20,000 bases of DNA from Chiloscyllium plagiosum (Eukaryota): NCBI RefSeq assembly GCF_004010195.1, contig NC_057757.1, positions 4,830,071-4,850,070 on the forward strand, written 5' to 3'. Shown here piece by piece: positions 1 to 19,038 of this stretch (within the stretch, counting starts at the first letter, position 1; each line of letters opens with the position of its first letter). The notes under the pieces were generated by a model that saw only the letters and a program-made list of their open reading frames with translations, did not search any database and was not told the DNA's origin. Position numbers and translations under genes: made by a program.

Positions 1-236
1 GCTCTTCTCAAAAATCATGGTCATGGGATCTTCAACAGCCCCTGACAGGGCAGGTGCAACCTGAGTTTAATATTTCATCTAAAAGATTGTACTGGTATGT
101 CGGACATTCCAGCACTCCCTCAGTTCTGGGAACTGGGAGAGTCTGCCTAGAATTTTATATCCAAACCTCTGGAGTGAGATTTAACCCATCACTGTCTGAT
201 TCAGGTGCTCGTGCTACCCACTGAGCCATGGCTGAC
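1..236 (-). mobile_element. tRNA-derived Deu-domain SINE (SacSINE1/AmnSINE1-like), 5' part; runs off the window start
   Basis: The reverse complement begins GTCAGCCATGGCTCAGTGGGTAGCAC (A box), has a degenerate B box (GGTTAAATCTC), then Deu-like core TAGATGAAATATTAAAC...AAGATCCCATGACC...GAGAAGAGC. Confidence 0.7.
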
Positions 237-417
237 TCACCATCACAGGTTTCTGCCCCTTTATTTCTCAGCTTTGTAATCAGGTTAAGTTACCCTGTGA
301 CGAAGCAGATGATAAGCGATTGGGTTACGCGTGAGTGCCTTGTACCATTTCTGTTTGCCTTCGTGGCTACAGTGTGTGATATAGGTACAAGGTTGTTTCA
401 TGCTAAATCGTTTTTTT

Positions 418-718
418 TAGATTACTTACAGTGTGGAAACAGGCCCTTCGGCCCACAAGTCCACACCGACGCGCAACCCACCCAGACCCATTCCCCCACA
501 CCTAACGCTATGGGCAATTTAGCATGGCCAATTCACCTAACCTGCACATTTTTGGATTGTGAGAGGAAACCGGAGCACCCACAGGAAACCCACACAGACA
601 CTGGGAGAATGTGCAAACTCTACACAGAGAGTCGCCTGAGGTGGGAATTGAACCCAGGTCTCTGGCGCTGTGAAGCAGCAATGCTAACCACTGTGCCACT
701 GTGCCACCGTGCCTGCCC
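418..718 (-). mobile_element. HE1-like V-SINE, near full length
   Basis: The reverse complement has A box TGGCACAGTGG (locally duplicated), B box GGTTCAATTCC, V-domain GTTTGCACATTCTCCC...GGGTTTCC and CR1-type tail CCTGTTTCCACACTGTAAGTAATCTA. Confidence 0.9.
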
Positions 719-864
719 CATCTCTTTCACTATATCTTCTGCATTTATCTTCTCATGCTATTGTCTTCATTCTTGCAATTTCCCAGGAAAATGATCCAAA
801 CAATCCTTCATCACTCCTGGTGCTGCCAATAAATGGGATTTAATCTGTCTCTTGTTTTCTAAAG

Positions 865-1034
865 ATGTTTGGTGTCAAAGAAGACTATTTCATTTGCTGT
901 GTTCAAAATCCTTCCAAAGGCTGACCTACCGGTCGCTGTGTCTGCCAGAAAACCTGAAGGACTGTGGAGTCACAGAACTGAAGGGGTACTATTTACAAGA
1001 ATGATGGCCTGCTCTGAGAGAGAGTGATTCACAA
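865..1034 (+). pseudogene. Disrupted lipoxygenase catalytic-domain exon (170 bp) of an upstream ALOX paralogue
   Basis: Acceptor TTGTTTTCTAAAG at 864 and donor GTAAGT at 1035. Encodes KSFQRLTYRSLCLPENLKDCGVTELKGYY/YKNDGLL*ERVIHK, matching the LOX motif LTYxSLCLPxDLxxRGVxxxxxYYYRDDGL. Needs a -1 and a +1 frameshift and has an in-frame TGA at 1015-1017. Confidence 0.85.
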
Positions 1035-1240
1035 GTAAGTAATAACTTAGGTTCTTCCAGTGTGGGAAATACTCTCGTCAATACTCTGGCACACTCAAAT
1101 CCCCTCAATGATCACTAATTCTGCTGAACGCAACAAAGTCAGTTCTCTTATGCTCAACTCCCATGTGGAATGTCAGGCGACCTGACCGTGTGGTACATTT
1201 TCTTTTCAATTCTAACTCCTGACCTGAAGCTATTGCAGCC

Positions 1241-1590
1241 AGGGGAGGCGATGGCCTAAGTGGGATTATCACCGGACTGGTAATCCGGAGACCCAGATAA
1301 TGTCCAGGTGGACCTGGGTTCGAATCCTGCCATGGCAGGCAGTGGAATTTGAATTCAGTAAAAAATCTGGAATTAAGAGTCTAATGATGACCATGAATCC
1401 ATTAACAATTGTAGGAAAAACCCATCTGGATCACTAATGCCCTTCAGGGAAGAAAGCTGCCATCCTTACCTGGTCTGGCCTACGTGTGACTCCAGACCCA
1501 AAGCTGTGTAGTTAACTCTTAACTGCCCCCTGGGCAATAAATGCTGGCCTAGTCAGTGACGTCCTCACCCCGTGAATGAATTTTTAAAAA
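1241..1590 (+). mobile_element. tRNA-derived SINE with LINE-derived tail
   Basis: A box TGGCCTAAGTGG, B box GGTTCGAATCC, and tail GGGCAATAAATGCTGGCC...CCCGTGAATGAAT shared with LINE fragments at about 7375-7620, 12400-12500 and 17010-17110. Confidence 0.8.
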
Positions 1591-1952
1591 ATCTTGACTA
1601 ATTTCCCTCAACTTTAGAGGGAGCTAGATTCCTGGACATGGAATGTGGACCTACAGAGTCCAAAAAGACCATCACCTAAAGGAAGAAGGCCAGACATGGA
1701 TATTCTTCTAGATAGTGTAAAATACAACTGGCTTTTTAAACTAGGTTATAATTTTCCTGGATATTGTTAAGAGTCCAGCTGAAACTCCTAAGACATATTG
1801 CCCCCAAAGGGAATAATTTGCTGTTTGATATAGAAGATAAGATGAGACAGCCTAAATTTTGAGTAAATATATAAATTGAATAATATAAGAAAACATAGAA
1901 TTTTGGTGGTTATACAAAGAAAAACACTAGCAGAGCTAAGTAAATTAGTACA

Positions 1953-2126
1953 CAGAGGAACTTCGATTATCCTGCATTCAATTATCCAAATATCAGATTA
2001 TTTGGCAAGATCGCAAGGTCCCGTTGCTCGGCTAAACTATGTTATCTGGCATTCGATTATCCGGAATTCAATCAACCAAATGAAATATTGCCCGCCCGTG
2101 TCCTTCGGATAATCGAGGTTCCTCTG
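1953..2126. mobile_element. Tc1/mariner (pogo/Tigger-type) MITE, 174 bp
   Basis: TIRs CAGAGGAACTTCGATTATCC and GGATAATCGAGGTTCCTCTG; TA on the right flank (CA on the left); internal ATTCGATTATCC-like repeats. Confidence 0.85.
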
Positions 2127-2138
2127 TAGTTGTAAAAA

Positions 2139-2335
2139 TTGAAAGGAATATGAAAATAAGGAGGTCTTGCGAAAGCGATACAAGGCAGACAAAATTTTGA
2201 ATACTGAGAATAGTTTTGGTCCCCTTATCTAAGGAAATATGGGAGGCAGTCCAAAGAAAGTTCACCAAATTAATCATGAATGTGGAGGGGTTTTCCTAAT
2301 TGAAGAGATTGAGCAGGTTGGGCTTGTACTCATTG
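2139..2335 (+). mobile_element. Degenerate CR1 LINE ORF2 fragment
   Basis: TTTTGGTCCCCTTATCTAAGGAA...GAGGCAGTCCAAAGAAAGTTCACCAAATTAATC (FWSPYLR...EAVQRKFTKLI), homologous to the CR1 at 8757. Confidence 0.7.
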
Positions 2336-2377
2336 CACAGTGAATGTAATCTTCCTCAGCAATTTCACATGAGTTGT

Positions 2378-2614
2378 TGAAACAACACCGTGGAGGTCGT
2401 TATCCTGTCACAAAGTCACCCTTCACTTTCACATGTACAGTACATGGACTTTGACCAGTTATCTTAGAGCCCATCCCCAGGGTGAGGAGAATCCCTGACA
2501 CTCCTGTTTTTGATCTGTCAGCAAGGGCTCCCTTTTTGGTCAGGGATAACAGCCCCAATCAGGGAACTCACGCTCAATGCGATCCACCTGGCCAACCTTG
2601 TTCCGATCACTACA
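2378..2614 (-). mobile_element. Solo LTR with 5-bp TSD
   Basis: TG...CA termini flanked by GTTGT (2373-2377 and 2615-2619); homologous along its length to 6923-7255. Confidence 0.8.
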
Positions 2615-3298
2615 GTTGTGAAGGCAATTGACCGTGACTTGGCTGCTTATCTCTGTCACTCAAAGAATACAGTTGACTTGCAGGCTTTACTAAGAACAAC
2701 CAGTATTCACTATGGACAGACCTCAGAAGCTATGGGGAGATGAAAAACGGAAAACATCTAGAAACCTAGTACAGCATTATTTATCCATTCTTGACAGTGA
2801 AAATATTCATAAAACCTGCTCAGAGCCTCTAAATCTTAAATGGTTAATCTCTTATATAAACCAATTCCTGTTAATGTGTCATATTAAATCCTTTAAGATT
2901 CTCTTTAAACCATTAGTCAACTGTGAACCTAGAATCCCTGCTGAAAAACATTGCGATTTGATGTCTATAATGCTGCAATAATATTTGTAGGGAAGTATCA
3001 ATAAGGATCTTTTACTGCAACGTCATGGAATAGATGCAGAGTTTTTAAAATATAACCTACACCTTCCAAACAAAGCTGGCTAGCAGAGGGTTTTTGTTAA
3101 AAAAAAATCCAGCAGGTATCTTTTCAGCTTTTAATGGGACAAAATTATAAACGCTTCAGATTTTGACGCTTAAATGGATCTTTTGTACCCTTCAATAGCA
3201 TTTATGTCTATCCAGTCAATTTGTGACTCTCAAATTATGGATTAAATGTCTTGATACCACCTAAAGGGAGTCTGTTTGAACTCATACAATGATGATCA

Positions 3299-3642
3299 TA
3301 GAATCTCTACATTGTAGAAGCAGGCCATTCAACCCTCCAAGTCCACACTGATCTTTCTGAACTGCATCCCATCCAGAGATACCCCCTGACCTTATGCCTG
3401 TAACTCTGCATTTTCCCATGGCTAACCAACCCAGCTTGCGTGTCCCTGGACGCCACAGGCCAGTCTAGCATGGCCAATCGAATTAACTCACACATCTTTG
3501 GACTGTGGGAGGAAACCAGAGCACCCAGAAGAAACCCACACAGACATAGGGAGAATGTGCAAACTCCATACAGACAGTGGCTCAAGGATGGAATTGAACC
3601 GGGATCCCTGGCGCTGTGAGGCACTGAGCCACCATGCCACCC
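3299..3642 (-). mobile_element. HE1-like V-SINE
   Basis: Homologous to 418-718 (GGAGAATGTGCAAACTCC, GGAATTGAACC B box, CR1-type tail). Confidence 0.88.
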
Positions 3643-4646
3643 TAACTCATTGCTAAGTTTAAATAGCTGGTTTGAGTGAGAGGGTGGGCTCCCTGCCTTG
3701 TGAATCACAGCTATCAGAATCAGAATCAACTCTCTGTAGCCTGTGCCCGATTGGCAAAATTGGGTCAGTTGGGAAATAGATTTGGATTTCTGCATCCTGC
3801 CTGCCCAGGGTGTGGAGAGTTGAGACAGCTTTGTGAAAAGTCAGTCCTTTCTATCCAGGTGGATCACTTTCTGTTATGAAATAGAGAACACTACAATAGC
3901 AAACAATTGCCACAACTATAACATCGAAAATTGAACCACATCTTAACTTGTGTTGATGTAACAGAGCAGGGAAACACCACCAACATCCAACTCCCAGCCA
4001 TTCTTAAATAACAAACACTCTTTAAAGAGTTCTCTGTCAGTGACTATCATCGGAAACTAAGCTTCCCCTATGTCTCTAAGGGTATTATTCTCTTTGCTTG
4101 ATTAAAAATATAAACCAGTGATCACAAACTTTCTATAGCCTTCAAAGCCCTGATCTTTTTTATTCGTAAATACATTTGAAGCTATTGGTTCATCATAAAC
4201 TCCTCTTACTTGTATGGCATTTTCTGAAGACACACTATGCACCCTCACAAAGGACACATTGTTACTTTCTGAACAATCCACCTTCACATGTCACCTGTTA
4301 AGAAAAAGATATCGTTTGACTTAACCTCCACTCTCTCATTTTCAATATTCTGACGAGTACACAACCTCATTGTGATCCTTACCCTGTTCACTATCAGATT
4401 TATCTTTTTAATTTCTGTATGGATTTGCAAACAAGGGTCTACTGTAACTCATGTGTTTGTGAGACAAGTTGTATTCATCGTCCACTACAGCACCTGCTCT
4501 TTGAAACTTTATGTGCTTCTCGGTAGGACCTAGGTAGAGGGCCATTTTTGTACACATCCTCAGTATGAATTTTAAAAACCTGACAGGTCAAGTCTTTGAA
4601 CACTTTTTCATTCCTGATCCTTAACACATTCAAATATAAATTTCAG

Positions 4647-4768
4647 GCTAGTCACCGAAATTGCCATGTACCACTATAAGACAGAAAGTGAAATTCAAGA
4701 TGTCCCTGAACTTCAGGCCTGGATTAAAGACCTCACTGAAGTTGGACTTGGAGATAATAAAAATACCG
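4647..4768 (+). pseudogene. Next lipoxygenase exon (122 bp) of the upstream ALOX paralogue; frame open
   Basis: Acceptor TTTCAG at 4646 and donor GTAAGT at 4769. Phase 2 start fits the phase 2 end of exon 865-1034. Encodes (K)LVTEIAMYHYKTESEIQDVPELQAWIKDLTEVGLGDNKNT(G), with the LOX motif DxELQAW. Confidence 0.88.
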
Positions 4769-5334
4769 GTAAGTGAATTTAGACTCACACCTGAACAAAT
4801 TTTAAGTTTGAACTTTCCTTAAGTGTCACAAAATACATTTTGACTACAGTGAGGACAAGGACCACAGGTGAGTCTCAACATTATCACATCCGAGTTCCCC
4901 TTCAGCTCACACACCAACCCAACTTGGGACACATTTCCTCCCAGTAAAATTATAGAATCTAACAGCATAGAAAGGAGGCCATTCAGCCCATCATATACGA
5001 GCCAGGTCTTTGAAAGAGCTGTCCAATTAGTTCTGCATCTCAGCCTTTTACATACTGTACACAATATTCAAAAGGTAGTCTCACCAATAGTATAAAATGT
5101 AGCTAAAAACCCCCACTGTTCCCATATTTTGATATCTACCATCTATCATCTCAATCACCAGCTGAACCTCACCTTATGGGATTCATGGACCAGGCCTCTC
5201 TCTGCAAACCTGAGTACTGCAATATCTCTCCTCTCTAAATAATCTGCTGCTTTGATATTCTTCCTATTAAAGTGGACACATTATTTTCCTATATTGTAAA
5301 CCATCAGGATTCCTAATGAAAAGTTTATGTTCAA

Positions 5335-5521
5335 AATGGAGTCCCGGGGGAAGGTCAGAGGGGGGAATGGAGTCCTGGGGGGAATGGGCGGGCGGGGAAT
5401 AAGTCCCAGGAGGAAGACCGGGGGCAGGGAATGCAATCCTCGGAGGAAGGCCGGGGCAGGGAATGGAGTCTGGAGTCCCTGGGGGGGGGAGGCTGGGGCG
5501 GGGAATGGAGTCACGGAGGCC
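5335..5521. repeat. G-rich degenerate minisatellite (about 30-33 bp unit, core GGGGCAGGGAATGGAGTC)
   Basis: Recurrent GGGAATGGAGTC / GGAGGAAGGCCGGGGCAGGGAAT motifs. Confidence 0.7.
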
Positions 5522-5833
5522 AGTGTGAGAAAGCGTACCCCAGAGCGGAGGCTGGTGCAGGGACTGCTGGAGCATTGAACTAGGGGCAAAGATTCAGGGT
5601 AAAGATCAGGCCAGGTATGGCTGGAATGAGAATTCCTTCACTTCAGAATGTGGTGTGACTTTGGAATTCACTTCCCTAGACAACCATCAGTCAGTGAGTG
5701 TGCTCTTGACGTAAATGGATAATTGGTTGTTTCTGGAGACTAGTATCATCACAAAGTACGAAAGTAACATGAGAAAGTGGAATTGAGATAGATGATAGGC
5801 TGTGATATCATGAAGGCTGTCTCCACTTGTATT

Positions 5834-5983
5834 AAGTTAAAAATCACACAACACCAGGTTATAGTCCAACAGGTTTAATTGGAAGCACACTAGCTTCCAA
5901 TTAAACCTGTTGGACTATAACCTGGTGTTGTGTGATTTTTAACTTTGTACACCCCAGTCCAACACCGGCATCTCCGAATCATG
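5834..5983. mobile_element. Short insertion with a perfect 53-bp inverted repeat and 12-bp TSD; probable PLE inverted terminal fragment
   Basis: Arms 5834-5886 and 5893-5945 are exact reverse complements around loop ACACTA; TCCACTTGTATT occurs at 5822-5833 and 5984-5995. Confidence 0.75.
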
Positions 5984-6442
5984 TCCACTTGTATTGAGAA
6001 GAATAGGTGCAGATTTAACAAAACCTGCAAAAGAGGATATGTGGAGGGATAAAAGTACTTTGTCATGCGTTGAGCAGTTGTGTTCTGGAAGACTGCCTGG
6101 AGGTGTGGTGGGGGAGAATTCAATTGTTGCTGTGGTGGAAATTGCACGTTTTCTGATGAGCAGCAGAGGGCGCCTGTGGCCCAGTCTGGGGCTGTTAGCT
6201 TCTCATTGATCTCCAGCCTCCAGTTCTGGCTTGTGGCTGCAATAGGGTTTGCAGCCTCCCACCCTCCTCCTTGTATTTCTTACTGGGATTTCAGGTGGAA
6301 ATTTCAGATAGGTGGTCACAGAGTGCAGAGAGAGAGTATAAGTCAGGCAGACAGAGGGATGGATAATAGCTAAGGAAGGAGAAAACAGGGATCATAAGTG
6401 GATGAAAATGGGCTGGCTGCGCTGAAAGCAGACCGCATCATG

Positions 6443-6803
6443 GGGAGAAAATGAACTGCAGATGCTGGAGATCAGAGTCAAGAGTGTGGTGCTGGAAAAG
6501 CACAGCCGGTCAGGCAGCATCCGAGGAGCAGGAGGATCGATGTTTCGGTCATAAGCCCATCATCATGAATGAGCCTTGTGGGCCAAGAGTGCTGAGAGAT
6601 AAATGGGAGGGAGTGGGGCTGGTTGGAAGGTAACTGAGAATGCGATAGGTAGACGGAGGTGGGGGTAAAGGTAATAGGTCATAGAGGAGGATGGAGCGGA
6701 TAGGTGGGAAGGAAGGTGGACATGTAGGACAGGTCAAGATGGCGGTGCCGAGTTGGATGGTTGGATCTGTGATGTGGTGGGGAGGAGGGGAAATGAGAAA
6801 AAT
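6443..6803 (-). mobile_element. PLE family B terminal fragment with degenerate hammerhead motif
   Basis: Homologous to 9951-10045, 11202-11350, 14433-14562 and 16047-16236; flanked by GACCGCATCATG (6431-6442) and GACCACATCGTG (6804-6815). Confidence 0.8.
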
Positions 6804-6922
6804 GACCACATCGTGACAGGGCCAGGGGTGTCAGGGTCGGTAAAAGACGTGGAAGGAGATGTTTTGGTTCTAAAATTATTGAACTCGATATTGAGCCCCC
6901 AGGCGAAAAATGAGATCCTGTT

Positions 6923-7255
6923 TGAAATAACTCCATTAAGGCCGGTATCCCATCACCAAGTCACTCTTTATTATGACACTGACGCAGCTAGTTCAGAGCT
7001 GGCTCCTAGAGTGAGCAGAACCCCTGACACAAAAAAGAACAAAGAACAATACAGCACGGAAGCAGGCCCTTCAGTCTTCTAAGCCTGCGCCGCCATATTT
7101 TGCCCTTCTATATTAAAACTGTCTTCACTTACAGGATGCATATCCCTCTATTCCCTTCCTGTACCTGTCAGCCAGGGCTCCCTGATTGGACCAGATTAAC
7201 AGTCCCAATCAGGGAACTCATATTCTACAAGATCAACCTCACTGCAATCACTACA
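6923..7255 (-). mobile_element. Solo LTR with 5-bp TSD, carrying an internal CR1-type 3'-tail insertion (about 7031-7161)
   Basis: TG...CA termini, TSD CTGTT (6918-6922 and 7256-7260), AATAAA on the minus strand near 6966-6971; collinear with 2378-2614 once the insert is removed. Confidence 0.82.
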
Positions 7256-7374
7256 CTGTTCTTCCAGCTTGTAACTGCTTCAGCATAACCAGGAAACTGC
7301 GCAGAGAGAGAGAGAGAGAGGATGTCTGAGGGTGAATACAAGGTAATTGAGGGATAGCATTGTGTTCTTTTGTT

Positions 7375-7620
7375 GTTTACCTGAATGTGGGCACCGCAGG
7401 CAAGGCCAACATTTATTAACCATCCCTCAGTGTCCTTAAAGTGTCTGTGGAGAAGCCAATTACAGCTGCCACAATGCATGTAGGTTAGGGACCCAGTGAC
7501 ACTGAAGGATATATTTCCAAGTCACGATGGTGAGGGGCTTGGAGGAGAACTTGCATGGGAGTGCTGTTCGTCTGCACCTGCTGACCTTGTCCTTCTCGGT
7601 GTAGAGTTCGGGACAGGCTA
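7375..7620 (-). mobile_element. LINE (CR1/L2 group) 3' fragment sharing its tail with the SINE at 1241-1590
   Basis: GGCAAGGCCAACATTTATT is the near reverse complement of the SINE tail AATAAATGCTGGCC. Confidence 0.6.
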
Positions 7621-7774
7621 TTTCGACAGCACAATGGAAAGCTCAAAGGGTGGGGTGCTGTAAAGGTCCATGTGTTCTTGGAGAGGGGGGGGGGGTGCGA
7701 TGAGACTGAGAAAATGACCTTCATCTAAATAACTCCTCCCACAATGACAGGATACTTTGCGTCCAATTAAGTAA

Positions 7775-8240
7775 TTTTTGAAGTTTAGTCCCTCCTGTAA
7801 AGTCAGAAGCAGTGTAACTGATAGCAAGATCCTCTAAACCTCGATTAAATTCATCACAAAATCATTCGTTATGGGCATCCGTTGATTGAGAAATGCTGGC
7901 TTGGGACTCAGGAGATTAGTCCATCCTCTTCTTCCGATATTTGCTGCCGCGGTATCTTTTACTTCTTCCTGGGTGGAGCCTTGCTGCTCCGGTTTCCTCC
8001 CACAGTCCAAGGATGTGCAGGTTAGGTGAATTGGTCGTGCTAAATTGCCCGTAGTGTCAGGTGCATTAGTCAGGAGTCAATGTAGGTGAATGGGTCTGGG
8101 TGGGTTGCTCTTCGGAGGGTTGGTGTGGACTTGTTGGGCCGAAGGACCTGTTTCCACACTGTAGAGAATTTAATCTAATCAAAGGATGGCACCTCTGACT
8201 ACGCAGCGCTCCTGCGGCACTGTACTGAGGTTATCAGCCT
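7775..8240 (-). mobile_element. Degenerate Deu-domain SINE split by an HE1 SINE
   Basis: CTCTTCTTCCGATAT...GGTATCTTTTAC before, and AAAGGATGGCACCTCTGAC...CAGCGCTCC after, the HE1 insert; collinear with 1-236. Confidence 0.55.
7985..8180 (+). mobile_element. 5'-truncated HE1-like V-SINE
   Basis: TGCTCCGGTTTCCTCCCACAGTCCAA...CCTGTTTCCACACTGTA...ATCTAATC. Confidence 0.88.
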
Positions 8241-8534
8241 TAAGCAATCGATTCTCTAACATGGAGGCTGCTGGAGAAAGGTGCAAAACTGAGGAAAGCC
8301 CGACATCCAAAAGCAAAACACAGTGCAAAGCAACAGGAGGAGGGACAGGCTCAGTCACGCAAGAAAAGGTATGAAATCATAAACCTTGCACCAATTGTGG
8401 AGCATTCTACACCTGAGGCGGTTCATGTGAAAAAAGTCTGGGTTGAAGTCAGCCTGTGTTAATTCCTGTAAAGTGAGGGACTCACCCACTTCCCTTTCTA
8501 TAAACTAACAAAGTCGTCCATATGGCCAACATAG

Positions 8535-9260
8535 GAAAGATGTTGTTAAATGCTACAGGGAAAGTGTGTTAAACTTAAGAGGGCGCAGAAAAGACTTACA
8601 AGGACATTGCTGCTGTTAGAGGGTTTGAGCTATATGGAGAGGTTGACTAGGTTGGGGCTGTTTTCCCTAGCTGAGGGGTGATATTGCAGTTATACAAGAC
8701 ATTAATTAGGCTACTTTTAGAATACTTATTGGTTGCCTTGCTATGGGTAGGATGTTGTGAAACTTGAAAGGGTGCAGAAAAGATTTACAAGGATGTTGCC
8801 AGGGTCGGAGGATTTGAGATGCAGGGAGAGGCTGAATAGGCTAGGGCTGTTTTCCCTCGAGCAATGGAAGCTGAGGGGTGACGTTATAGAGGCTTATAAA
8901 ATCATGAGGGACATGGATAGGGGAAATAGACAAGGTCTTTTCCCCCAGCATAAGGAAGTCCAGAACTAGAGGGTATAGCTTTGAGGTGAGAGGGGAAAGA
9001 CTTAAAAGGGACCTAAGGGGCATCTTTTTCACACAGAGCATGATGTGTGGATGGAATGAGCTGCCAGAGGAAGCGGTGGAGGTTGGTACAATGACTACAT
9101 TTAAAAGGCATCTGGATGGGTATATAAATGGAAGGGTTTGGAGGGATATGGGCCAGGTGCTGGCAAGTGGGACTAGATTACGTTGGGATAACTGGTTGGC
9201 ATGGTCGGGTCAGAGCGAAGGATCCGTTTCCATGCTGAACAACTCCATGACTGTATGACT
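8535..9260 (+). mobile_element. CR1 (HER1-like) LINE ORF2 3' end; two abutting fragments plus 3' UTR
   Basis: KLERVQKRFTRMLPG...LGLFSLEQWKLRGDVIEAYKIM and RDLRGIFFTQ...WNELPEE are typical of the CR1 ORF2 C-terminus; ends in ATGACT repeats. Confidence 0.92.
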
Positions 9261-9574
9261 GTAACATGGACAAGCACACCAAACCCTGTAACTGCTCTGG
9301 ATGGTTGACCTGAAGGGTTTGGAAAGAGATCTTCTTCCTTCTGGCAGTGAGACTGCTTGACCCAGGATATTCCACCATGAACATGGAAGGGCATGCTTTA
9401 CTTCTGTAGGATGAGTGCTTGGAGTGAGCAGGGGGTCCTTCAGCTTGGAAGACATCAGCTGGTCCACCGGGAGAGAGCCACAGATTGCATGATCGCTGCT
9501 CACAGCCCTGTCATCAGTGTAGAGCCACAGGGAGCTGGGGTATTGCCTGGAGTTTTGAAGAAGTGGCGCTCAAC

Positions 9575-9655
9575 CAGAAATGTTAATTCTGCTTTCTCTC
9601 CACAGATGCTCGCAGACCTGCTGAGTTTTTCCAGCATTTTCTGTTTTGGTTTCTG
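9575..9655 (+). mobile_element. PLE-type terminal fragment
   Basis: GAAATGTTAATTCTG...CAGATGCT...GACCTGCTGAGTTTTTCCAGCA resembles the sequence downstream of the hammerhead in the PLE copies. Confidence 0.5.
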
Positions 9656-9689
9656 ATAGTCTGGAGTGACTGTGTTATGTGGGATTTGA

Positions 9690-10087
9690 GCATTTCGCGC
9701 TATTTATTGCCCTTCCACATTTGCCCAGAGGGTAGTTCAGACTCAGTCTCATATAGGCAAGACCAGGTAAGGATGGCTGATTTCCTGTTCAAGAGGACAA
9801 TGGTGAACCAGATGGGTTGTTTTTTTTTAATGACAGTAACAACAGATATGCAATCACAATTTCTCCCCTTCAGATTTTAGTGAACTCAAATTTCACCATC
9901 TGCCATGGTGAGATTCTAACTCATATCCATTTAATAGTAGCCTGAGGTTCCTGAGGAAGAGCTTATGCTCGAAACGTCGATTCTCCTGCTCCTCGGATGC
10001 TGCCTGACTGGCTGTGCTTTTCCAGCACCACACTCTGTGACTCTAAGCTCCTGGATTACTCACCCAATGTCAGCTGCTACCATCGCT
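9690..10087 (-). mobile_element. Degenerate copy of the 1241-1590 SINE family, interrupted by PLE-B
   Basis: AGACCAGGTAAGGATGGC, CCAGATGGGTT, CTGCCATGG and CTGGATTAC are reverse complements of segments of 1241-1590. Confidence 0.7.
9951..9978 (+). ncRNA. Minimal type-I hammerhead ribozyme motif in a PLE-B fragment (9951-10045)
   Basis: CTGAGGA-A-GAGC-TTAT-GCTC-GAAAC-GTC: intact CUGANGA and GAAA core, perfect 4-bp stem II, GUC cleavage triplet; stem I is very short. Confidence 0.65.
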
Positions 10088-10099
10088 TTAAGGTTGAAG

Positions 10100-10545
10100 T
10101 GTTGTTGGATTACAAGGGAGATCCTGGGTTTGGAGAGACTGTCTTATGAGGAGAGGTTTAGTAGACTTTGCCTGTATGTGTTGAGGTTTAGAAGAATGAG
10201 AGGTGACCTCGTTGGAATATGCAAGATTTTTAGGGGACTTAATCCTTATGGGAGAGTCTTGGACCAGACAATATAGTCTCAGAAAATTGGTATGTTCATT
10301 TAAAACAGAAATGATGAAGAATTTCTCCTCTTAGAAGGTTGTGAAATTATTTACAGCTGAGGGCTGTCAAAGCTGGGTTGCTATGTATATTCAAGGCTGA
10401 GATAGACAGATTTTTAATTGATAAGCCAATTAAGGGTTATGGGGAAAAGGAAGGAAAGTGGAATTGAGGATTATCAGGCCAGCTATGATCTCACTGAATG
10501 ATAATGCAGACTTGATGGGCTGAATGGCCTTCTTCTGCTCCTGTG
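10100..10545 (+). mobile_element. CR1 LINE 3' end
   Basis: GLERLSYEERFSRLCLYVLRFRRMRGDLVGICKIFRGL plus 3' UTR GATGGGCTGAATGGCCT. Confidence 0.85.
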
Positions 10546-11201
10546 TCCTCATGAAAATATTCTATCCAATGTTGAATTCTGACCTCCTCATCTTTAACAA
10601 CACAAACTCCATCCTGAGAGGGAAGCAGTTTTTGTCCATTTGACCATCATCTACAGGGAGCCCCGGTGGATTACAAAAAGTATTGTTGTCATGACGATTG
10701 GTTGATCTCTCGAGTTTTCGGTTTCTGCTACATGTCCTTTATCTTCCAAAATTGTCACTGGGCTTTTGATTTTGTGGCCTTTAACAGGACAGGCCTCTCT
10801 GAGTGATTAAGTGAGTCACATTGATATATCCACCTTAGTGAGGAGCTCCACTGGGAATTGTGAGAGCTGGATGGATCACAAGAGGTTGGATTAACGATGT
10901 TCCAAGAACTGTATTGTCTGAATCTAAGGTGGCTGTGACAGTGACCATCATTTCTCAGAGAACTCTGAATTCAGGTGCAGTTCTCAAATATTTTCTTTGA
11001 TTCTGACAAAAATATCAAGCACAAGAAACTGAGGACATTTGATCCCCAAAATCTGTCACACCGAGTTCTATGAATTTATTTATGATTTCATCCCTCCCCT
11101 TACTTGCTAACTGCATCCAATCCCACAATTTTCCAAGTTCTTTGCAATGTGGTTAACTCTGAAGTAACCCTTTCAAATTATCCAGCTATAGAGTAGTCCA
11201 A

Positions 11202-11363
11202 GGAGAAAGTGAGGACGGCAGATGCTGGAGATCAGAGCTCAAAATATGTTGCTGGAAAAGCGCAGCAGGTCAGGCAGCATCCAAGGAACAGGAGAATCAA
11301 CGTTTTGGGCATAAGCCCTTCTTCAGGAATGAGGAAAGTGTGTCCAGCAGGCACACATAAAAG
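11202..11363 (-). mobile_element. PLE family B terminal fragment with hammerhead motif (11295-11330) and 11-bp TSD
   Basis: Minus strand CTGAAGA-A-GGGC-TTAT-GCCC-AAAAC-GTT; GAGTAGTCCAA at 11191-11201 and 11364-11374. Confidence 0.8.
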
Positions 11364-11374
11364 GAGTAGTCCAA

Positions 11375-12030
11375 CTCAATCACGCCTACCAGGTTTCCCA
11401 AACGGAACCAATCCCTTTTGCCTGCATTTGGCCCATATCCCTCTAAGCATTTCCAATTCATGTATCTGACCAATGTCTTTTAAAATGTTGTATCTGGATC
11501 TGCCACTTTCGCTGACGGTTCATTCCACAGCCTCAGGCAACTGTCTGTGTGGAGTTTGCACATTCTCCCCGTGTCTGTGTGGGTTTCCTCCGGGTACTCC
11601 AGTTTCCTCCCAAAGTCCAAAAAAATGTGCAGGTTAGGTGAATTGGCTATGCTAAATTGTCCGTAGTGTTAGGTGTAGGGGAATGGGTCTGGGTGGGTTG
11701 CTCTTCGGAGGGTGTGTATGAACTTATTGGGCTGAAGGGCCTGTTTCCACACTGTAAGTAATCTAATCTAGACCCTCTGTGTGAAAAAAAATTGCCCCTT
11801 TTAAAACTTTCCCTTTTACCTTAAAGTTATACCCTCTAGTTTTGAAACCTTATCTTAGCCCATGCATGATTTTATACAATTCAATGAGGTCACCCCTTAA
11901 CCTCCTACACTCCACTGAAAAAAGTCCCAGCCAGTGCAACCTCTCCTTTTAACTCAAATTCTCCAGTCTTGGTAATATCCTTGTAAATCTTTTCTGCACC
12001 TTCTCCAATTTAATAATATCCTTCCTGAAG
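11375..12030 (-). mobile_element. CR1 LINE 3' end, interrupted by an HE1 SINE
   Basis: Reverse-complement homology to 8757-9200 (CCTTGTAAATCTTTTCTGCACC; CCCTCTAGTTTTG; CATTCCACA). Confidence 0.85.
11531..11771 (+). mobile_element. 5'-truncated HE1-like V-SINE nested in CR1
   Basis: GTGTGGAGTTTGCACATTCTCCCCG...CCTGTTTCCACACTGTAAGTAATCTAATCTAG. Confidence 0.9.
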
Positions 12031-12632
12031 GGAATTGGGGATGCAAAACAAATGCTAGCCTCGACACACACACACACATATATATATATAAAAGCTACGT
12101 ACTCTCACTGCAATTCTGAATTTATTACAGCAACAGGTCACCGTCACTCTTAATGTGGTTTATTGCAACTTGCATTTCCGCCAGGGCTGTTTCCAATTTT
12201 CCAATCAAGTCCACCCCCCCCTTTAACTTAATTACAAGAAAGAAATACAATGGTCAAACCAAGTGTCACTTTCCCAAATGTGCGACTTGCATAACCATTC
12301 ATTTGCAATGTTGGAGTGAGGCAATCAACAAGTATGCATTTCCGTTAAGGCAGAACCGACTCTTAACCCAGAGGAACCTCACAAACCATTCCATTCAGAT
12401 ACACTGCAGACTTTCCAGGGGGGTGTTGCTGACTGCCACTTTCTCAAAGCTGTTAAGGACAGGCAACAAATGAATGCCTTGCCAGTGACAGCCACATCTT
12501 AAAAATGACATGCAATAGATACGCATCCTGTAAATTTGAAGCATTGACATTAACAGAGGGGAAAACATGAGGATGTTGGTCCACACACAGAGAAATGTCA
12601 CTATATATCCAAAGGGGCCCTCTGCTGTCTGG

Positions 12633-12737
12633 CAGCTGGTAGCCTTTTAAATCGCAAGGGTTAATCCCGCGCTCAGGCAATTTGGGAGAGCGTCTCATGT
12701 TACTGAACTAAGCACACGCCTATAACAACAGGTATGC
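12633..12737 (+). promoter_or_regulatory. Putative core promoter and non-coding first exon of the ALOX gene
   Basis: CAGCTG at 12633, TTTTAAA at 12645-12651, donor-like CAG|GTATGC at 12731/12732; a pyrimidine tract plus AG directly precedes the ATG at 12928. Confidence 0.35.
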
Positions 12738-12927
12738 AGTTTGAAACACACCTAGTATTTGTTCAGTGTTTAATAGCCTTGCTAAAGGAAACCTAGCTCT
12801 GTGACATTATCCAGCGCTGACGACCCGTGAACTAGCCCTGCCCTCTGGCTGATTCACTCCAAAGCTGCGTCTCCCACAACCAGCAATACTCTTTCTTTCC
12901 TGTTCCCCTCCAAACCTTTGTGAAAAG

Positions 12928-13077
12928 ATGATCACCTACAGGGTCACAGTGGCTACAGGCACAACTTATTACTCAGGAACAAACAATTACATCTATGTCA
13001 CTCTGATAGGAGAGAAAGGGAAAAGCCAGAGGACCAGCCTGGACAAGTGGCTTCAGAATAATCTGGAGCGTGGAAGT
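12928..13077 (+). CDS. ALOX5-like: Lipoxygenase (ALOX5-like) first coding exon, PLAT/C2-like domain
   Basis: MITYRVTVATGTTYYSGTNNYIYVTLIGEKGKSQRTSLDKWLQNNLERGS aligns without gaps to the recalled human ALOX5 N-terminus ([28 protein letters not shown]...LLDKPFYNDFERGA); phase 0 donor GTAAGT at 13078. Confidence 0.93.
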
Positions 13078-13099
13078 GTAAGTGCCTGTGAGAGTTTTT

Positions 13100-13327
13100 T
13101 TTTGTGTGTGTGCATGAGAGAGAGAGTGTATGTGTCTGCATGAGTGTGCATGTGTATGAGAGAGAGAGAGGAAATGTGTGGGTTGAATTTGTGTAGTCAG
13201 TGAAACTTTTTAGATAATATGCAAGAGAGAAAGTGTGTGTGTACTGCACATCGTGCATGAATTTTGCATGAGTGAGTGTGACAGAAGTCTTGTTTATGTC
13301 TTTGCGAGTGGGTATGTGTATATACGT

Positions 13328-13366
<39 letters not shown>

Positions 13367-13620
13367 TGGCTGTGTGTAGGTGAAAAAGAGAATGGCTGTG
13401 TTTCTGTATGTGTGCAAGAGTGATTGTGTGAGAGAGTGGCCATGTGTTTGCGATGGATGTGTATCTGTGTGCAGGCTTTGTGTGCGTGTATGTGTGCCTA
13501 TTTGTGTGTTTGAAAGTGAGAGAGAGACATTTGCATGCGTGTCTGTTTGTGAGAGTGGGTGTGTGAGTGACGAGTGTAACGTGTGTTAAGTGTGCTGTGT
13601 GACTACTGAGTGTGTAAGTA
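13100..13620. repeat. (TG)n/(AG)n low-complexity microsatellite tract at the start of the intron
   Basis: Pure (TG)n then (AG)n at about 13327-13365 within degenerate TG/AG sequence. Confidence 0.9.
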
Positions 13621-14432
13621 TTCGCTGTATGGTGGCCATAAAAGCTGGTGAGTATAATGATATCACTTTTTAGTATTGAACATTTAATCTGCATTCTAAC
13701 CGTACGAGAACTCAATTTGAGAGAGGGGTGTCTCCTGTAGAAAATTAAGAACTGAAAGTTTTTTTTATAAAATAAGACCTGTGGAGGCAGGAGCTATTTT
13801 CCCAATTAATGAATTATATATAATACTCCCTTAACAGCCTGCAGCAAGACCTATAATCGCAAATTGCTCATTGATTCTTGCTTATGCAGAAAGTCTACAA
13901 TCTCCATTTCGTAGGGAAGGGTGAGCTCTATCCCCAGATTTTGCTTACTGAGATTGTTGTAAAACATATCAGCATTTAGTTTGTTTCCACTGTTGTACTG
14001 ATGCCAATTTGGCACAGAACACCGGCAGGTTCTTGAGATTAAGCAGAAGCATACCCAAAGGCAGCTAACATTTGGTGTTGCTCAACTATTGTAGACTCAC
14101 ACCAGCCACGTTCACGCCCCATGCCCAACACACCTTTTATCTAAACTGGGATTTGATGTGTGGGGAAAGGCATCTTAACTTACAGAAAGGAGAAAATGAT
14201 GGTTCCTTGGTCAGACTCTATCACAGTGGTCAGTTCCAGTTGCTGGAAGGGACCTCAGGAAGGGTCAATACCGAACGTCTGATTCATCATAGTGCAATTA
14301 GTATTGATCACCGTTATGTACGAACAATGCTAGGTGTGGCCTTAAATGACATTCGTTCTTGTTTCACAGTGTTTCTATTCCAAGCCTATACTTGCAGTTA
14401 CAACACATCCAGTTAGGCCTGAGACCAATCTC

Positions 14433-14562
14433 ATTCTGGATAAAGGGCTTATGCCTGAAATGTCGATTCTCCCGCTCCTCGGATGTTGCCTGACATGCTG
14501 TGCTTTTCCAGCACCACACTCACGACTCTGATCTCCAGCCTCTGTCGTCTTCACTTTCTCCT
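14433..14562 (+). mobile_element. PLE family B terminal fragment, hammerhead core broken
   Basis: TGGATAA-A-GGGC-TTAT-GCCT-GAAAT-GTC followed by the family B tail; possible TSD ACCAATCTC / ACCATTCTC. Confidence 0.78.
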
Positions 14563-14579
14563 ACCATTCTCCTAAAGTA

Positions 14580-15007
14580 ACACACCACAGAAACAGAGCC
14601 TTTGGTTAAAGCAGTCCATGCCGAACGTAATCCCAACTAAACTAGTCCCAGCTGCCTGCTGCAGGGTTACAAGGACTGGGTCGGGAGTCTGGGTGGGATT
14701 CTCTTCAGGGGGTCAATGTGGGCTTGATGGGCTGAATGGCCTGCTTGTTCACTGCAGGGATTCTATGATTCAGTCCATGCCAAATGTAATCCCAACTAAA
14801 CTAGTCCCTGCTGTGTGCTCCTGGTGCATCTCCATCCAAACCTTTCTTTTGCATGTTACTTATCTAAGTGTCTTTTAAATGTTATAACTGTGGTTGCATC
14901 CACCACTTCCCCAGGAAGTTCATTCCACGTGCGAACCGCCCCCAAATTTGCCCCTTATGTCTTTTTTAAGTCTCTCTCCTCTCATCTTAAAAATATGCCC
15001 CCCAGTC
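14580..15007 (-). mobile_element. CR1 LINE 3' end with an inserted plus-strand SINE/CR1 tail (14661-14770)
   Basis: Minus-strand GHIFKMRGERLKKDIRGKF, homologous to 8986-9030. Confidence 0.8.
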
Positions 15008-15053
15008 TTGTCACCAGTTCTGAAACCGTGTATGGTTTCAGAACTGGTGACAA
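15008..15053. repeat. 46-bp palindrome (perfect 20-bp arms, 6-nt spacer)
   Basis: TTGTCACCAGTTCTGAAACC-GTGTAT-GGTTTCAGAACTGGTGACAA. Confidence 0.9.
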
Positions 15054-15504
15054 ATTTCACATGTAACGGACACGATCCTTGTTTCAAATGTCCAAGAAAG
15101 AATAACAGTAAGGATTGCTTACAGATGGCAATGTGCAATTTCAAACTCAACTCGTGAGCATGGCGGTGGCATTACTCACAATTTTAAGAGAGACATGCAT
15201 CAGGAGAAAGATTGGCTCTGATTTAAAATAAATGTCAATTTTAGCTGAATGAATTCTGAGAATGAAATTTGAACTTTACCTGGGACTGCATGTTTCCAAT
15301 AATAGTTTCTCTGAATGTAGTCTTTTTCAGGAATGTAAATATCGCGTTGTTTGTTTGATGATGCAAATACCTCCCGCCTCAGGCTTACTGCTCAAGGGTA
15401 TATGTTTTCAAATTGAAAATTGCAATAATAGAATTCAGCTTCTCTATCTGATCCTGATTTTATTTACTCCACCATTATCAGGTCATGTTGGTGAGCTGCC
15501 AAGC

Positions 15505-15790
15505 CCTGTGATTTGCTTCCCCAGGGTGGGGGAGTCCGAGCAAGATGGCATGGATTTAAGGGGAGAGGGCAAAGGTATAAAAGGGACCTGATAGAACACA
15601 AGAGGGGGGTGTGTGTATGGAATGAGCTGCCAGAGGAAATAGTGGAGGCTGGTACAATGACAGCATTTAAAAGATAGGTATAAAGATAAGAAAGGTTTAG
15701 AGAGATGTGCGCTAAACACAGGCCAATGGGACTAGTTCAGTTTCGGAAACCTGGTTGGCATGGATAGGTTGAGCATAATGCCTGTTCTCT
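15505..15790 (+). mobile_element. CR1 LINE 3' end
   Basis: TGGAATGAGCTGCCAGAGGAA...GGTACAATGAC...CATTTAAAAG is shared with 9051-9110. Confidence 0.85.
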
Positions 15791-15800
15791 CTGACATTTC

Positions 15801-15840
15801 CAGTTAAGGTTTCAAATCGAGTGACCGTTCGTCAGAACTG
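15801..15840 (-). ncRNA. Type-I hammerhead ribozyme motif of PLE family A
   Basis: Minus strand CAGTT-CTGACGA-ACGGTCACTCGATTT-GAAAC-CTT-AACTG: perfect 5-bp stem I and intact core; stems II and III partly decayed. Confidence 0.65.
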
Positions 15841-16046
15841 AAAGCAGCAGCTTGGAAAGGGCAGGGTTTATGCTGATTACAGGGGAGTGGGGAAAGGAGT
15901 GAGTGGACAGGTGGAGAGGGAGCCCAGAGAGAAATATAAAGGATAGGCAGACAAAAGGAATAAGCCAGGAAAGATGAGAAGCTAGATTGGTGCTAATGGG
16001 AACTGTGAGTGGGCGAAAATAGTTGGCCTCACACCATGTTGTAACA

Positions 16047-16234
16047 CAGTAGGTTAGGCAGCAACCGAGAGGCAGGAGAATCGACGTTTCAGGCAGAAGT
16101 CCTTCATCAGGAATGATGACCGGCTTATGCCCGAAACACCGATTCTCCACTCCTCAGGTGCTGTCTGACCTGCTGTGCTTTTCCAATACCCCACTCTCCA
16201 CTCTGATCTCCATCATCTGCAGTCCTCACTTTCT
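16047..16234. mobile_element. PLE family B inverted pair of terminal fragments, each with a hammerhead motif
   Basis: Minus arm 16047-16116 (CTGATGA...GAAACGTC at 16110-16083) and plus arm from 16112; flanked by CCATGTTGTAACA and CCATGTCATAACA. Confidence 0.82.
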
Positions 16235-17389
16235 CCATGTCATAACATGGCCTGGTGTGTGGACTGGGTAATAGATATGTTCAGGACCTAAAATTATTAA
16301 ACTCAATATTGAATCCTGAAGGTTGTAAGGTCCTCGAGTGAAAGATGAAGTGTTGTTCTTCCAGCCTGCATTGTGTCTTACTGGAGCACTGCGGGAGGCC
16401 TGAGACAGAAATGTTAAGACAAGAACATGGCAGTGTGTCAAAGTGGCAGGCAGCTGGAAGCTCGGGGTCATTTTTGTGAACAGAACTCATTATTTCATTA
16501 CTGTTTGGTCATGTAGCTGCCTACCAACCACTCAGAGACATCTTGAGATCGTGAAGGCTGCCACAGAAATGTGGAATACTGGGGGTGAGCAGTGCGATTG
16601 CCCCATTTGCACTTGCATGACTGTCAGGCTCTTGAATGAGCATGGCAACTTTATCAATGGAATGTGGAAAAGCATCTGACCCTTATGCACAGTGTAAAGC
16701 CGCACCTTATTGTCACACAGAGACCGGCTTGTCAGAGGATGTTTGGCTTGGCATATGAAACAAACATTCAGCAGGCTGAACAGGCAGATACTGTGCTGAG
16801 AGGGAAAATAAAACAACCTCATCCGACTTCTAGAATATTCCGTGCTCTGTGGGAACCAACTGTGCATGCTATCGCCAAGAGCAAAGTAATGGAACCTACC
16901 ATCCTGTGACCAACACACAGCCTCTTGGTTTAGTGCTTGGTTAAATCACAGGACATGGTTTAATCCAATCTCAACACAGCCTGATGCATTTTCCTCACAG
17001 ATTTCCTCACTCTCCCAAGGAGTGTGAATGTCAGCATTTATGGCCCAACCCTGACTGGCCTGGAGAATTGGTGCTGAGCTCCCTGTTTTAACCATTGCAG
17101 TCCAACTTCTGTAGGTATATACATGTATGACTCTAATCTGCATTGCTCCAACAATCACCTACCCAGTAGAATATCCAGGCCATTGTTGCTAAGACTATTG
17201 AGAGACCTATAAATGTAGGTCTTCAACCTACAAGAGCACCAGACGATCTGCCTCTCTCCAGCAAAGCTGTTGAGACACAATCAGATTTTGTGGCGTTTAA
17301 TGCCGCTCCAACATTAACCATTTGCAACACTTCTAAGACAACCACATTTCGCAAGTAAGGAGGCCAAAATTAAATACAGTGTGCCAGAA

Positions 17390-17690: not shown

Positions 17691-17764
17691 GACTTCATCT
17701 TTCAAAGTTCCCTCTGTTCCAAGGTCCACTAACATCCCCACTGAGTGGTAGCACCATCCATATA

Positions 17765-18421
17765 CTGAGGAACCTCGATTATCTGAATGAGGTGGGCGGG
17801 CTGTATTTCCTTCAGATAATTGATAATTCAGATAATCAATTTTCCCTTAAACAAGGGAAACCATGCTGATCGAACACTGTGCTCTACCAGAGAGTTTGTT
17901 TAAATCTATAATATTAATGTATTGTGTGTGAGGACACAGGTTTCACATGATGAACAAAATAAAGCAATGATAACACGAGAAAACTTTTTAAAAAATGCAG
18001 CAGTGGTTAGCATTTGGCAAGGAATGGTGAAGACAGCCTGAAGGTCCTGAACAGCTTCTACGTTTGCAAGAGCATTTGTCGGTTTCCAGGAACACAGTCT
18101 TGCATTAGAAAGATAGAAGCACCGCCTCGCACATGCATTTACGTTCTCGGACGTTTTTTTCATGAACGGTAAAGTGATGGGAATACTCTAAAACACTTAC
18201 TTTTTCAAAGGGCTGTGTAACAACCATGACCTAAAAAATATCCAGTTGCTGATGCTTGAACTGCTTGTGTTTCTATGTTCTTGCCAGTGTTTTCACATGT
18301 CCTTCAGTACAGGTAGATCGAATACACTTACCTCTTTGATGTAACATTTTTGCGGGACCTTGAAATCTTCAGATAATCCAAAATTCGCTTAATTAATATT
18401 CGGATAATCGAGGTTCCTCTG
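17765..18421. mobile_element. Tc1/mariner-type non-autonomous DNA transposon, 657 bp, same TIR family as 1953-2126
   Basis: 24-bp TIRs CTGAGGAACCTCGATTATCTGAAT and ATTCGGATAATCGAGGTTCCTCTG (22/24 match); TA on both flanks. Confidence 0.88.
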
Positions 18422-18477
18422 TAAATCTACATTTTTTTTTTCTTTTGCACTGTCCTGACTCCTCTATATTCTTTTAG

Positions 18478-18839: not shown

Positions 18840-19038
18840 GTGGATGAATACGAGGTGAAAAGTGAGCGGGATCTGGGCTCCATCTGGTGGGTGCAGTTGG
18901 AGAAAGTGAAGTTCCTGGTGGAAGATGACTGGTTTTGCCGTTATTTGACGGTATGCACCCCCTCAGGAGATATCCTACAGTTCCCCTGCTACCGGTGGAT
19001 GAGCGAAGAGGACATCATCCACGTCCGGGAAGGAAAAG
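18840..19038 (+). CDS. ALOX5-like: Lipoxygenase (ALOX5-like) second coding exon (199 bp), PLAT/C2-like domain
   Basis: Acceptor CCAG at 18839 and donor GTTCGT at 19039. VDEYEVKSERDLGSIWWVQLEKVKFLVEDDWFCRYLTVCTPSGDILQFPCYRWMSEEDIIHVREGK has the LOX hallmarks DDW and FPCYRW; phase 0 joins exon 12928-13077 in frame. Confidence 0.95.

Follow-up and report, generated by a model that had tools for sequence, protein, structure and literature searches.

We report that six sites in a 20,000-nucleotide (nt) stretch of the Chiloscyllium plagiosum genome (NCBI RefSeq assembly GCF_004010195.1, contig NC_057757.1, positions 4,830,071 to 4,850,070, forward strand; the window) hold, as judged from their sequence, minimal type-I hammerhead ribozyme motifs (min-HHRs) of the kind carried by Penelope-like elements (PLEs). 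The six motifs very probably lie on short 3′ ends of a very abundant repeat family, most likely dead, 5′-truncated copies of a PLE that bears an endonuclease (EN). The observations described below concern the anatomy of the motif, membership of the copies in one family, target site duplications (TSDs), a fold-back unit, two tail lengths, and decay at CpG sites. Coordinates are collected in Table 1.

One repeat family carries all six hammerhead motifs

Motif limits were counted from C3 to H17 using hammerhead position numbers. A single repeat family, hereafter family A, occupies all six sites; since the six copies are one repeat, they count as one evolutionary event and not as six independent ones. 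The family-A majority has the full catalytic core (CUGANGA, GAAA, and NUH), an A bulge after A9, the pair G10.1-C11.1, and a helix III consisting of the loopless palindrome ACGU (15.2-16.2). Its helix I is made of C-G and U-A (2 base pairs [bp]), followed by a U·U mismatch and an A-U pair. Family-A motifs fit the published min-HHR consensus, NNN CUGANGAH G..C GAAAN palindrome NUH (PMC4209133). Individual copies depart from the majority to different extents: the full core is present at 9951 and 16083, with lesions in the other four of the six; G10.1-C11.1 is intact at 9951, 11299, and 6539; the palindrome is kept at 9951, 11299, and 16083; and N7 differs among copies. An earlier reading of this DNA, made from the letters alone (the sequence-only reading), had listed the motif at these six sites and described stem III as the loopless ACGT. 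A family-A copy is indeed found at every site, but the motif as written is intact only at 9951, and the description of stem III holds for three copies and fails for the rest.

To relate these matches to background, we compared the window with dinucleotide shuffles of it. The zero-mismatch min-HHR descriptor matched the window twice (9951 and 16083) and matched none of 30 shuffles; with one mismatch allowed, there were 6 matches, versus a shuffle mean of 0.43 and a maximum of 2. A simpler, independent pattern gave 5 matches versus 0.53 expected, and none of 200 shuffles reached 5. One-mismatch matches at 12567 and 13735 lacked the family tail and were treated as chance, and a similar stretch at 14250-14290 was dropped after it failed to align with the family. 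The motif pattern returned no matches in a search of viral contigs.

The copies decay without excess conservation of the core

Lesions were scored against the majority of the six copies. Only 9951 is complete in its core, its four helix II pairs, and its ACGU palindrome; the damage in each of the other five includes at least one change of CpG type. The lesion at 11299 falls on G12, the proposed general base of the hammerhead (PMC6155905). Across five copies (16113 was left out of this count owing to a gap in its tail), 5 of 55 cells of the invariant core were changed, compared to 11 of 80 at other motif positions and 16 of 200 in the tail. Excess conservation of core bases across copies, whose lack the sequence-only reading had named as one point against its proposal, is absent (5/55 versus 16/200). 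Such a lack of excess conservation is expected of dead copies, and most of the family-A copies in the window are most likely dead and drifting.

The same reading had also singled out GAGC/GCTC in helix II of the 9951 copy as a compensatory pair. It is a true double change, of non-CpG type, that preserves pair 10.2-11.2, but it occurs in one of six copies. We read variation in the 3′ half of the motif from public sequencing contigs of three species, aligned on the 11299 copy at 80% likeness (organism A, 60,764 aligned contig pieces; B, 63,443; C, 9,498; pieces are not copies, and the choice of reference biases the sample). In the contigs of all three species, the 3′ partner position 11.2 varies by less than 3%, as do A13, A14, A15.1, U16.1, and the remainder of 11.2 to 11.4; C11.1, 15.2, and 16.2 vary by 5 to 18% through CpG-type changes. 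The GAGC/GCTC form is thus a rare variant, a minor subfamily at most. Helix I of 9951 is also longer than that of the majority, reaching 6 of 7 pairs; this extension is likely luck, because the extra upstream bases belong to an older flanking repeat. With five of six copies damaged, the core kept no better than the tail, and the compensatory pair a single rare variant, the window does not bear out the proposal of a self-cleaving family with covariation. The abundance claimed for the family was upheld, with ∼60,000 matching contig pieces per DNA run in two species.

Family-A inserts resemble 5′-truncated PLE copies

Candidate TSDs were scored with a script and compared to 300 random pairs, of which 12 scored at least 6 and 5 scored at least 7. 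The insert at 11202-11363 is bounded by a perfect 11-nt TSD (11191-11201/11364-11374; score of 11 versus a best of 8 among the random pairs). Duplications with 2 mismatches flank the 6443-6803 insert (12 nt; 6431-6442/6804-6815) and the fold-back unit (13 nt; 16034-16046/16235-16247; score matched by 5/300 random pairs). These two inserts lie in the 3′ untranslated region (UTR) of a host PLE, whose sequence can be aligned to either side of each. At 14430-14562 there is a weak 9-nt candidate with 1 mismatch, its score matched by 12/300 random pairs. No TSD passing the script test was found at 9948-10045, where a degenerate duplication was seen by eye.

All six inserts span the cut site, and none of the six tails begins there. 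Measured from the cut site, tails end after 96 to 98 nt in four copies, after ∼70 nt at 9951, and after 36 to 38 nt at 16083. On the other side of the motif, four of the six copies start within 8 nt of C3, and the other two carry 37 and 237 nt ahead of the motif. A tandem-repeat search of the window returned three rows, none with the motif, so that no tandem array was found, and the window contains no reverse transcriptase (RT) sequence. Family-A inserts behave like 5′-truncated PLE copies.

A host PLE and metagenome loci place the motif behind GIY-YIG-type frames

The fold-back unit lies in a second PLE, whose open reading frame (ORF) end is at 16284-16508. The product of this ORF end had 43 homologues at E ≤ 0.001 in a full HMMER search, and a word-indexed search against longer proteins gave none at E ≤ 0.001. 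Two of six scanned homologues had weak GIY-YIG matches, one of them also RVT_1, and the others were mis-joined predictions. A Pfam scan of the 75-residue host fragment itself returned no match. The fragment aligns with the C terminus of a frame in metagenome locus L007 that encodes RT and GIY-YIG in 456 residues (38% identity; E = 6 × 10−7). A Cys-rich linker precedes the GIY-YIG motif in homologues of the window's ORF end (the L007 ORF and P0016) and is seen only in the homologues. Two predicted proteins, P0007 and P0002, join a PLE C terminus to unrelated parts (a seven-transmembrane receptor and fragments resembling a long interspersed nuclear element [LINE]) and are likely annotation errors caused by these repeats.

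The host element carries a motif of its own at 15806-15835 (family B), a seventh site that was absent from the earlier list of six. Here, ORF end (16284) and motif (from 15835) follow one another on the same strand. The same order was found in metagenome contigs. A scan with the core pattern yielded 122 loci from 8 of 64 collection parts, with full flanks for 80; 12 of the 122 match the window's GIY fragment, and in 12/12 the motif lies 91 to 180 nt downstream on the same strand. The pattern left helix I unspecified; in a set of 104 distinct motifs, the mean helix I run was 3.30 pairs versus 1.47 after partner shuffling (maximum of 1.76 in 1,000 shuffles; the loci were chosen by core pattern and are partly related, and this contrast is support and not a P value). 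The first helix I pair was absent in 14/104, and H17 was not G in 96/104. Stem covariation, a check named with the sequence-only reading, is seen in helix I across the comparator motifs, but within family A it comes down to the single 9951 pair. The link of minimal type-I hammerheads to PLE ends was supported by the consensus fit and by the position of the motif behind GIY-YIG-type ORF ends. Among the comparators, L006 and L007 are one contig with two opposite-strand motifs around a PLE frame, and L044, L051, and L113 hold pairs of motifs on opposite strands, an arrangement resembling the fold-back unit of the window.

Table 1. Positions of family-A motifs and inserts, host PLE parts, and gene pieces in the window
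Feature	Position	Strand	Description
Family-A motif (C3 to H17)	6539-6566	−	Lesions at C3, 9.1, 11.3, 16.2
Family-A motif (C3 to H17)	9951-9978	+	
Family-A motif (C3 to H17)	11299-11326	−	G12>A; H17 C>U, tolerated
Family-A motif (C3 to H17)	14437-14464 (14436 copy)	+	5′ core damaged, plus C11.1, 15.2
Family-A motif (C3 to H17)	16083-16110	−	Core intact; helix II changes at 10.3, C11.1
Family-A motif (C3 to H17)	16113-16140	+	C3 absent (inversion junction inside core); lesions at G10.1, 16.2, U16.1
Family-A PLE 3′ fragment, ∼360 nt	6443-6803	−	Probable last ORF codons, 3′ UTR, damaged min-HHR 6539-6566, 96-nt tail; inside another PLE's 3′ UTR
Family-A stub, only intact motif	9948-10045	+	Motif 9951-9978, GAGC/GCTC helix II, shorter tail; inserted in older dispersed repeat
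Family-A insert, 162 nt	11202-11363	−	Motif 11299-11326 with G12>A
Family-A stub, damaged core	14430-14562	+	Motif 14437-14464; sense strand between two PLAT exons
Fold-back family-A unit	16047-16234	.	Two arms meeting head to head: 16047-16116 on the minus strand (motif 16083-16110; helix II damaged, core complete) and 16114-16236 on the plus strand (motif truncated within the core); inside another PLE's 3′ UTR
Host PLE ORF end	16284-16508	−	Open 75-residue C-terminal end of GIY-YIG-type PLE endonuclease
Host PLE	6804-6901	−	Frameshifted GIY-YIG ORF end (GLNIEFNNFR) and 3′ UTR start; UTR resumes below 6431; weak tblastn matches, E 0.04
Family-B min-HHR	15806-15835	−	End of host PLE 3′ UTR (15836-16033); helix I 8/8; G10.1 (helix II) and helix III damaged
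Probable decayed B-type motif with tail	9553-9640	+	Weak alignment; over 32-39 nt, tail matches those of family A at 77-84%
PLAT-domain exon (lipoxygenase-like gene start)	12928-13077	+	PF01477, E 8e-7
Exon, rest of PLAT domain	18840-19037	+	PF01477, E 1e-9
Lipoxygenase exon upstream of PLAT gene start	4618-4773	+	PF00305, E 1.6e-4

Proposed origin of the inserts

To account for these inserts, we propose that the RT/GIY-YIG protein of the element would nick the target DNA and that reverse transcription would be primed in the tail, 65 to 100 nt downstream of the motif. Copying would usually stop a few bases beyond the motif and would sometimes flip, leaving an inverted arm. The templates were likely uncut RNA, because every copy spans the cut site and a template cut after GUC could not yield such copies. 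By analogy with other species, the motif of the source element may cleave after GUC weakly, either as a dimer through ACGU pairing or with the help of protein; inserted copies would then drift neutrally. Weak dimer cleavage has been described for minimal hammerheads (PMC4209133). For a PLE of the anole in vitro, unprocessed RNA was reported as the main template; its hammerhead depended on protein, and insertion could proceed without it (PMC11167929). A truncated 5′ end, an adjacent inverted copy, and an optional 30- to 40-nt tail are described PLE traits (PMC8557442).

Several observations weigh against assigning family A to dead, truncated PLE copies with a hammerhead. The two ORF ends that are clear in the window are those of the host (B-type) element and not of family A, whose own ORF link is an 8-residue match by eye: the 6803 edge of the family-A fragment reads IFLISPPP and resembles the C terminus IFKISPPP of homologue P0019. 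No full-length family-A element was seen in the window. The 2-bp helix I lies at the weak end of the range (two pairs or fewer in 30/104 comparators), monomer folds were no stabler than shuffles (z of −0.05 to −1.07), and the way the comparator loci were chosen, as described above, counts here as well. In addition, none of nine Rfam matches to the window up to an E value of 5 was a hammerhead; loopless hammerheads may sit outside the covariance models.

Alternative explanations

The family-A motif may have lost RNA cutting and been kept as a hammerhead-shaped fold or protein-binding signal that stalls RT and so sets the 5′ edge of most copies. We regard this as rather unlikely, although it is compatible with the truncated-PLE explanation. 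The 2-bp helix I with its U·U mismatch is in the register of five of the six copies, the pair-restoring change at 1.3 reaches only 0.3 to 6% in three runs, the cut site is spanned by all copies, and catalytic mutants of the anole PLE inserted unimpaired in vitro (PMC11167929), all of which favor a signal that does not cut. However, the majority core is fully canonical with the ACGU palindrome kept, and a 2-bp helix I is also found in published PLE motifs of Drosophila virilis and Culex (PMC4209133). Dimer modeling points in the same direction: the double hammerhead of 9951, with four intermolecular pairs in the ACGU helix III, was placed at −19.7 kcal/mol, 7.7 kcal/mol above the best fold, and that of 11299 was 8.8 kcal/mol above it, closer than the comparator median of 12.1 (n = 87). 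This energy model is a rough check in which catalysis is not scored, and for 9951 it indicates that the fold is possible, nothing more.

It is unlikely that the 95- to 135-nt units form a separate non-autonomous family, a possibility raised by the sequence-only reading, transcribed from short masters that begin where the hammerhead begins and mobilized by PLE proteins in trans. The clustering of four of the six starts next to C3 would fit such masters, as would the steep drop in contig-piece depth upstream of the motif (depth is not copy number, and upstream subfamilies differ). Against this, the two longer copies run into UTR-like sequence, and loose ends at 11352 carry on with common sequence in two runs. 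Nor is there the tandem motif array that would make these units retrozymes as defined in 10.64898/2026.07.22.740005.

We consider it very improbable that the host has retained 9951 as a ribozyme that cleaves RNA from the lipoxygenase-like locus. This copy is the sole intact one, has the compensatory pair and the longer helix I, and lies on the sense strand between the lipoxygenase exon (4618-4773; E = 1.6 × 10−4) and the PLAT exon. However, its extra helix I bases are those of the flanking older repeat, no intact same-strand partner copy lies nearby, and one intact copy of six is the neutral-decay expectation. Among 100 plus-strand frames of at least 36 residues in 1-12900, no downstream lipoxygenase exon was found; therefore, no intron is shown to cover 9951. 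Finally, it is hardly credible that a single amplified repeat resembles a hammerhead by chance: the six copies being one event, the lack of an Rfam match, and the lack of excess core conservation would allow it, but another family within the window combines the core with a different, fully paired helix I, the same motif recurs in the same position with a covarying helix I in unrelated loci, and the published consensus is matched.

Possible target preference

Two independent family-A inserts (6431-6815 and 16034-16247) occupy nearly one position, to within 2 to 3 nt, of the second PLE family's 3′ UTR, ∼40 to 55 nt past the host ORF stop; these are two events only. At 11202, the loose-end consensus contains 5, 6, and 6 G/C letters in the runs of the three species, all of which coincide by eye with a repeat end at 11725-11754; agreement is 0.34 to 0.36, so most flanks are diverse. 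The abundant dispersed repeat that ends at 11725-11754 is also present at 417-455 and 8135-8173. The flank signal and the paired host-UTR inserts may reflect targeting, a composite subfamily, or chance. That PLEs tend to land within or next to PLE copies has already been stated (PMC6765202), and our literature search on PLE target preference returned nothing that looked related. It is conceivable, though on balance unlikely, that the family-A endonuclease aims at a fixed register in other repeats, parasitizing them, and that the hammerhead, with helix I nearly lost, serves as a 5′ boundary and not as a cutter. A target preference, if real, would offer a new approach to the PLE endonuclease.

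Other features of the window

Two family-A copies lie on the sense strand between the PLAT exons; because both are damaged, no effect on the PLAT gene is expected. Upstream, an exon-like piece seen by eye at ∼870-1035 (plus strand) has a frameshift and a stop and no Pfam match, and this piece and 4618-4773 are possibly a tandem pseudogene. A near-perfect inverted repeat at 5828-5951 (59-nt arms, 97%, 6-nt loop) scores below the gathering cutoffs of microRNA models and is possibly the end of another fold-back element. Short repeats of an internally repeated unit, mutually inverted, at 1962-2128, 17763-17856, and 18367-18425 have the look of miniature inverted-repeat transposable elements, and a G-rich minisatellite with a period of ∼32 occupies 5335-5520. 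Fragments at 8567-9210, 10120-10540, 11372-12025, 14857-14927, and 15538-15770 derive from one 3′ end that we take to be LINE-like.

Comparison with known systems

This kind of hammerhead is already published, and the window family is an added member of a described class. Min-HHRs were reported in the pseudo-long terminal repeats of metazoan PLEs, with thousands of solo copies per genome (Cervera and de la Peña 2014; PMC4209133). Family A shares with them the core CUGANGA/GAAA/NUH, the extra base between 9 and 10.1, the G10.1-C11.1 pair, and the loopless palindromic 15.2-16.2, as well as mostly solo copies from truncated elements and close opposite-strand pairs. Both its helix II, at 4 bp, and its helix I, at 2 bp followed by U·U, fall short of most of those examples; helix I of PLE min-HHRs is typically 3 to 5 bp, and 2 bp in some. 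Contig-piece counts of family A are far above the 2,000 to 9,000 copies given there, although pieces are not copies. Cartilaginous fish do not appear in the covered portions of the lists in Table S1 and Fig. S3 of that paper, and our literature search, whose coverage left out most subscription papers, identified no shark report of such hammerheads.

With the insertion units of EN-bearing PLEs of the Neptune/Nematis type, which have a Zn-finger-like linker (Craig et al. 2021; PMC8557442), family A has in common the 5′ truncation, the adjacent inverted truncated copy, and the optional tail; the Cys-rich linker before GIY-YIG is likewise found in homologues of the window's host ORF end. In contrast to characterized units of this type, the window has no RT, and its ORF end is that of the host family and not provably of family A. 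Poseidon_Ac (PAc) of the green anole (Frangieh et al. 2024; PMC11167929) resembles family A in that its hammerhead lies near the tail, its tails come in two lengths, and there are copies reaching 5′ beyond the cut site. It is, however, a different family, in which protein-assisted cleavage was shown. Non-LTR retrozymes (bioRxiv 10.64898/2026.07.22.740005) are also PLE-derived with a type-I hammerhead, and in that work one chondrichthyan genome was scanned with canonical and minimal models and tandem retrozymes were found. By definition, retrozymes repeat in tandem, head to tail, with a complete motif in every unit, whereas the window copies are dispersed or head to head. Family A adds one more host lineage to the described min-HHR class. 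The role of PLE hammerheads is still open according to PMC8557442, and a very abundant family that combines a canonical core with so weak a helix I lends itself to the question of whether cleavage is selected.

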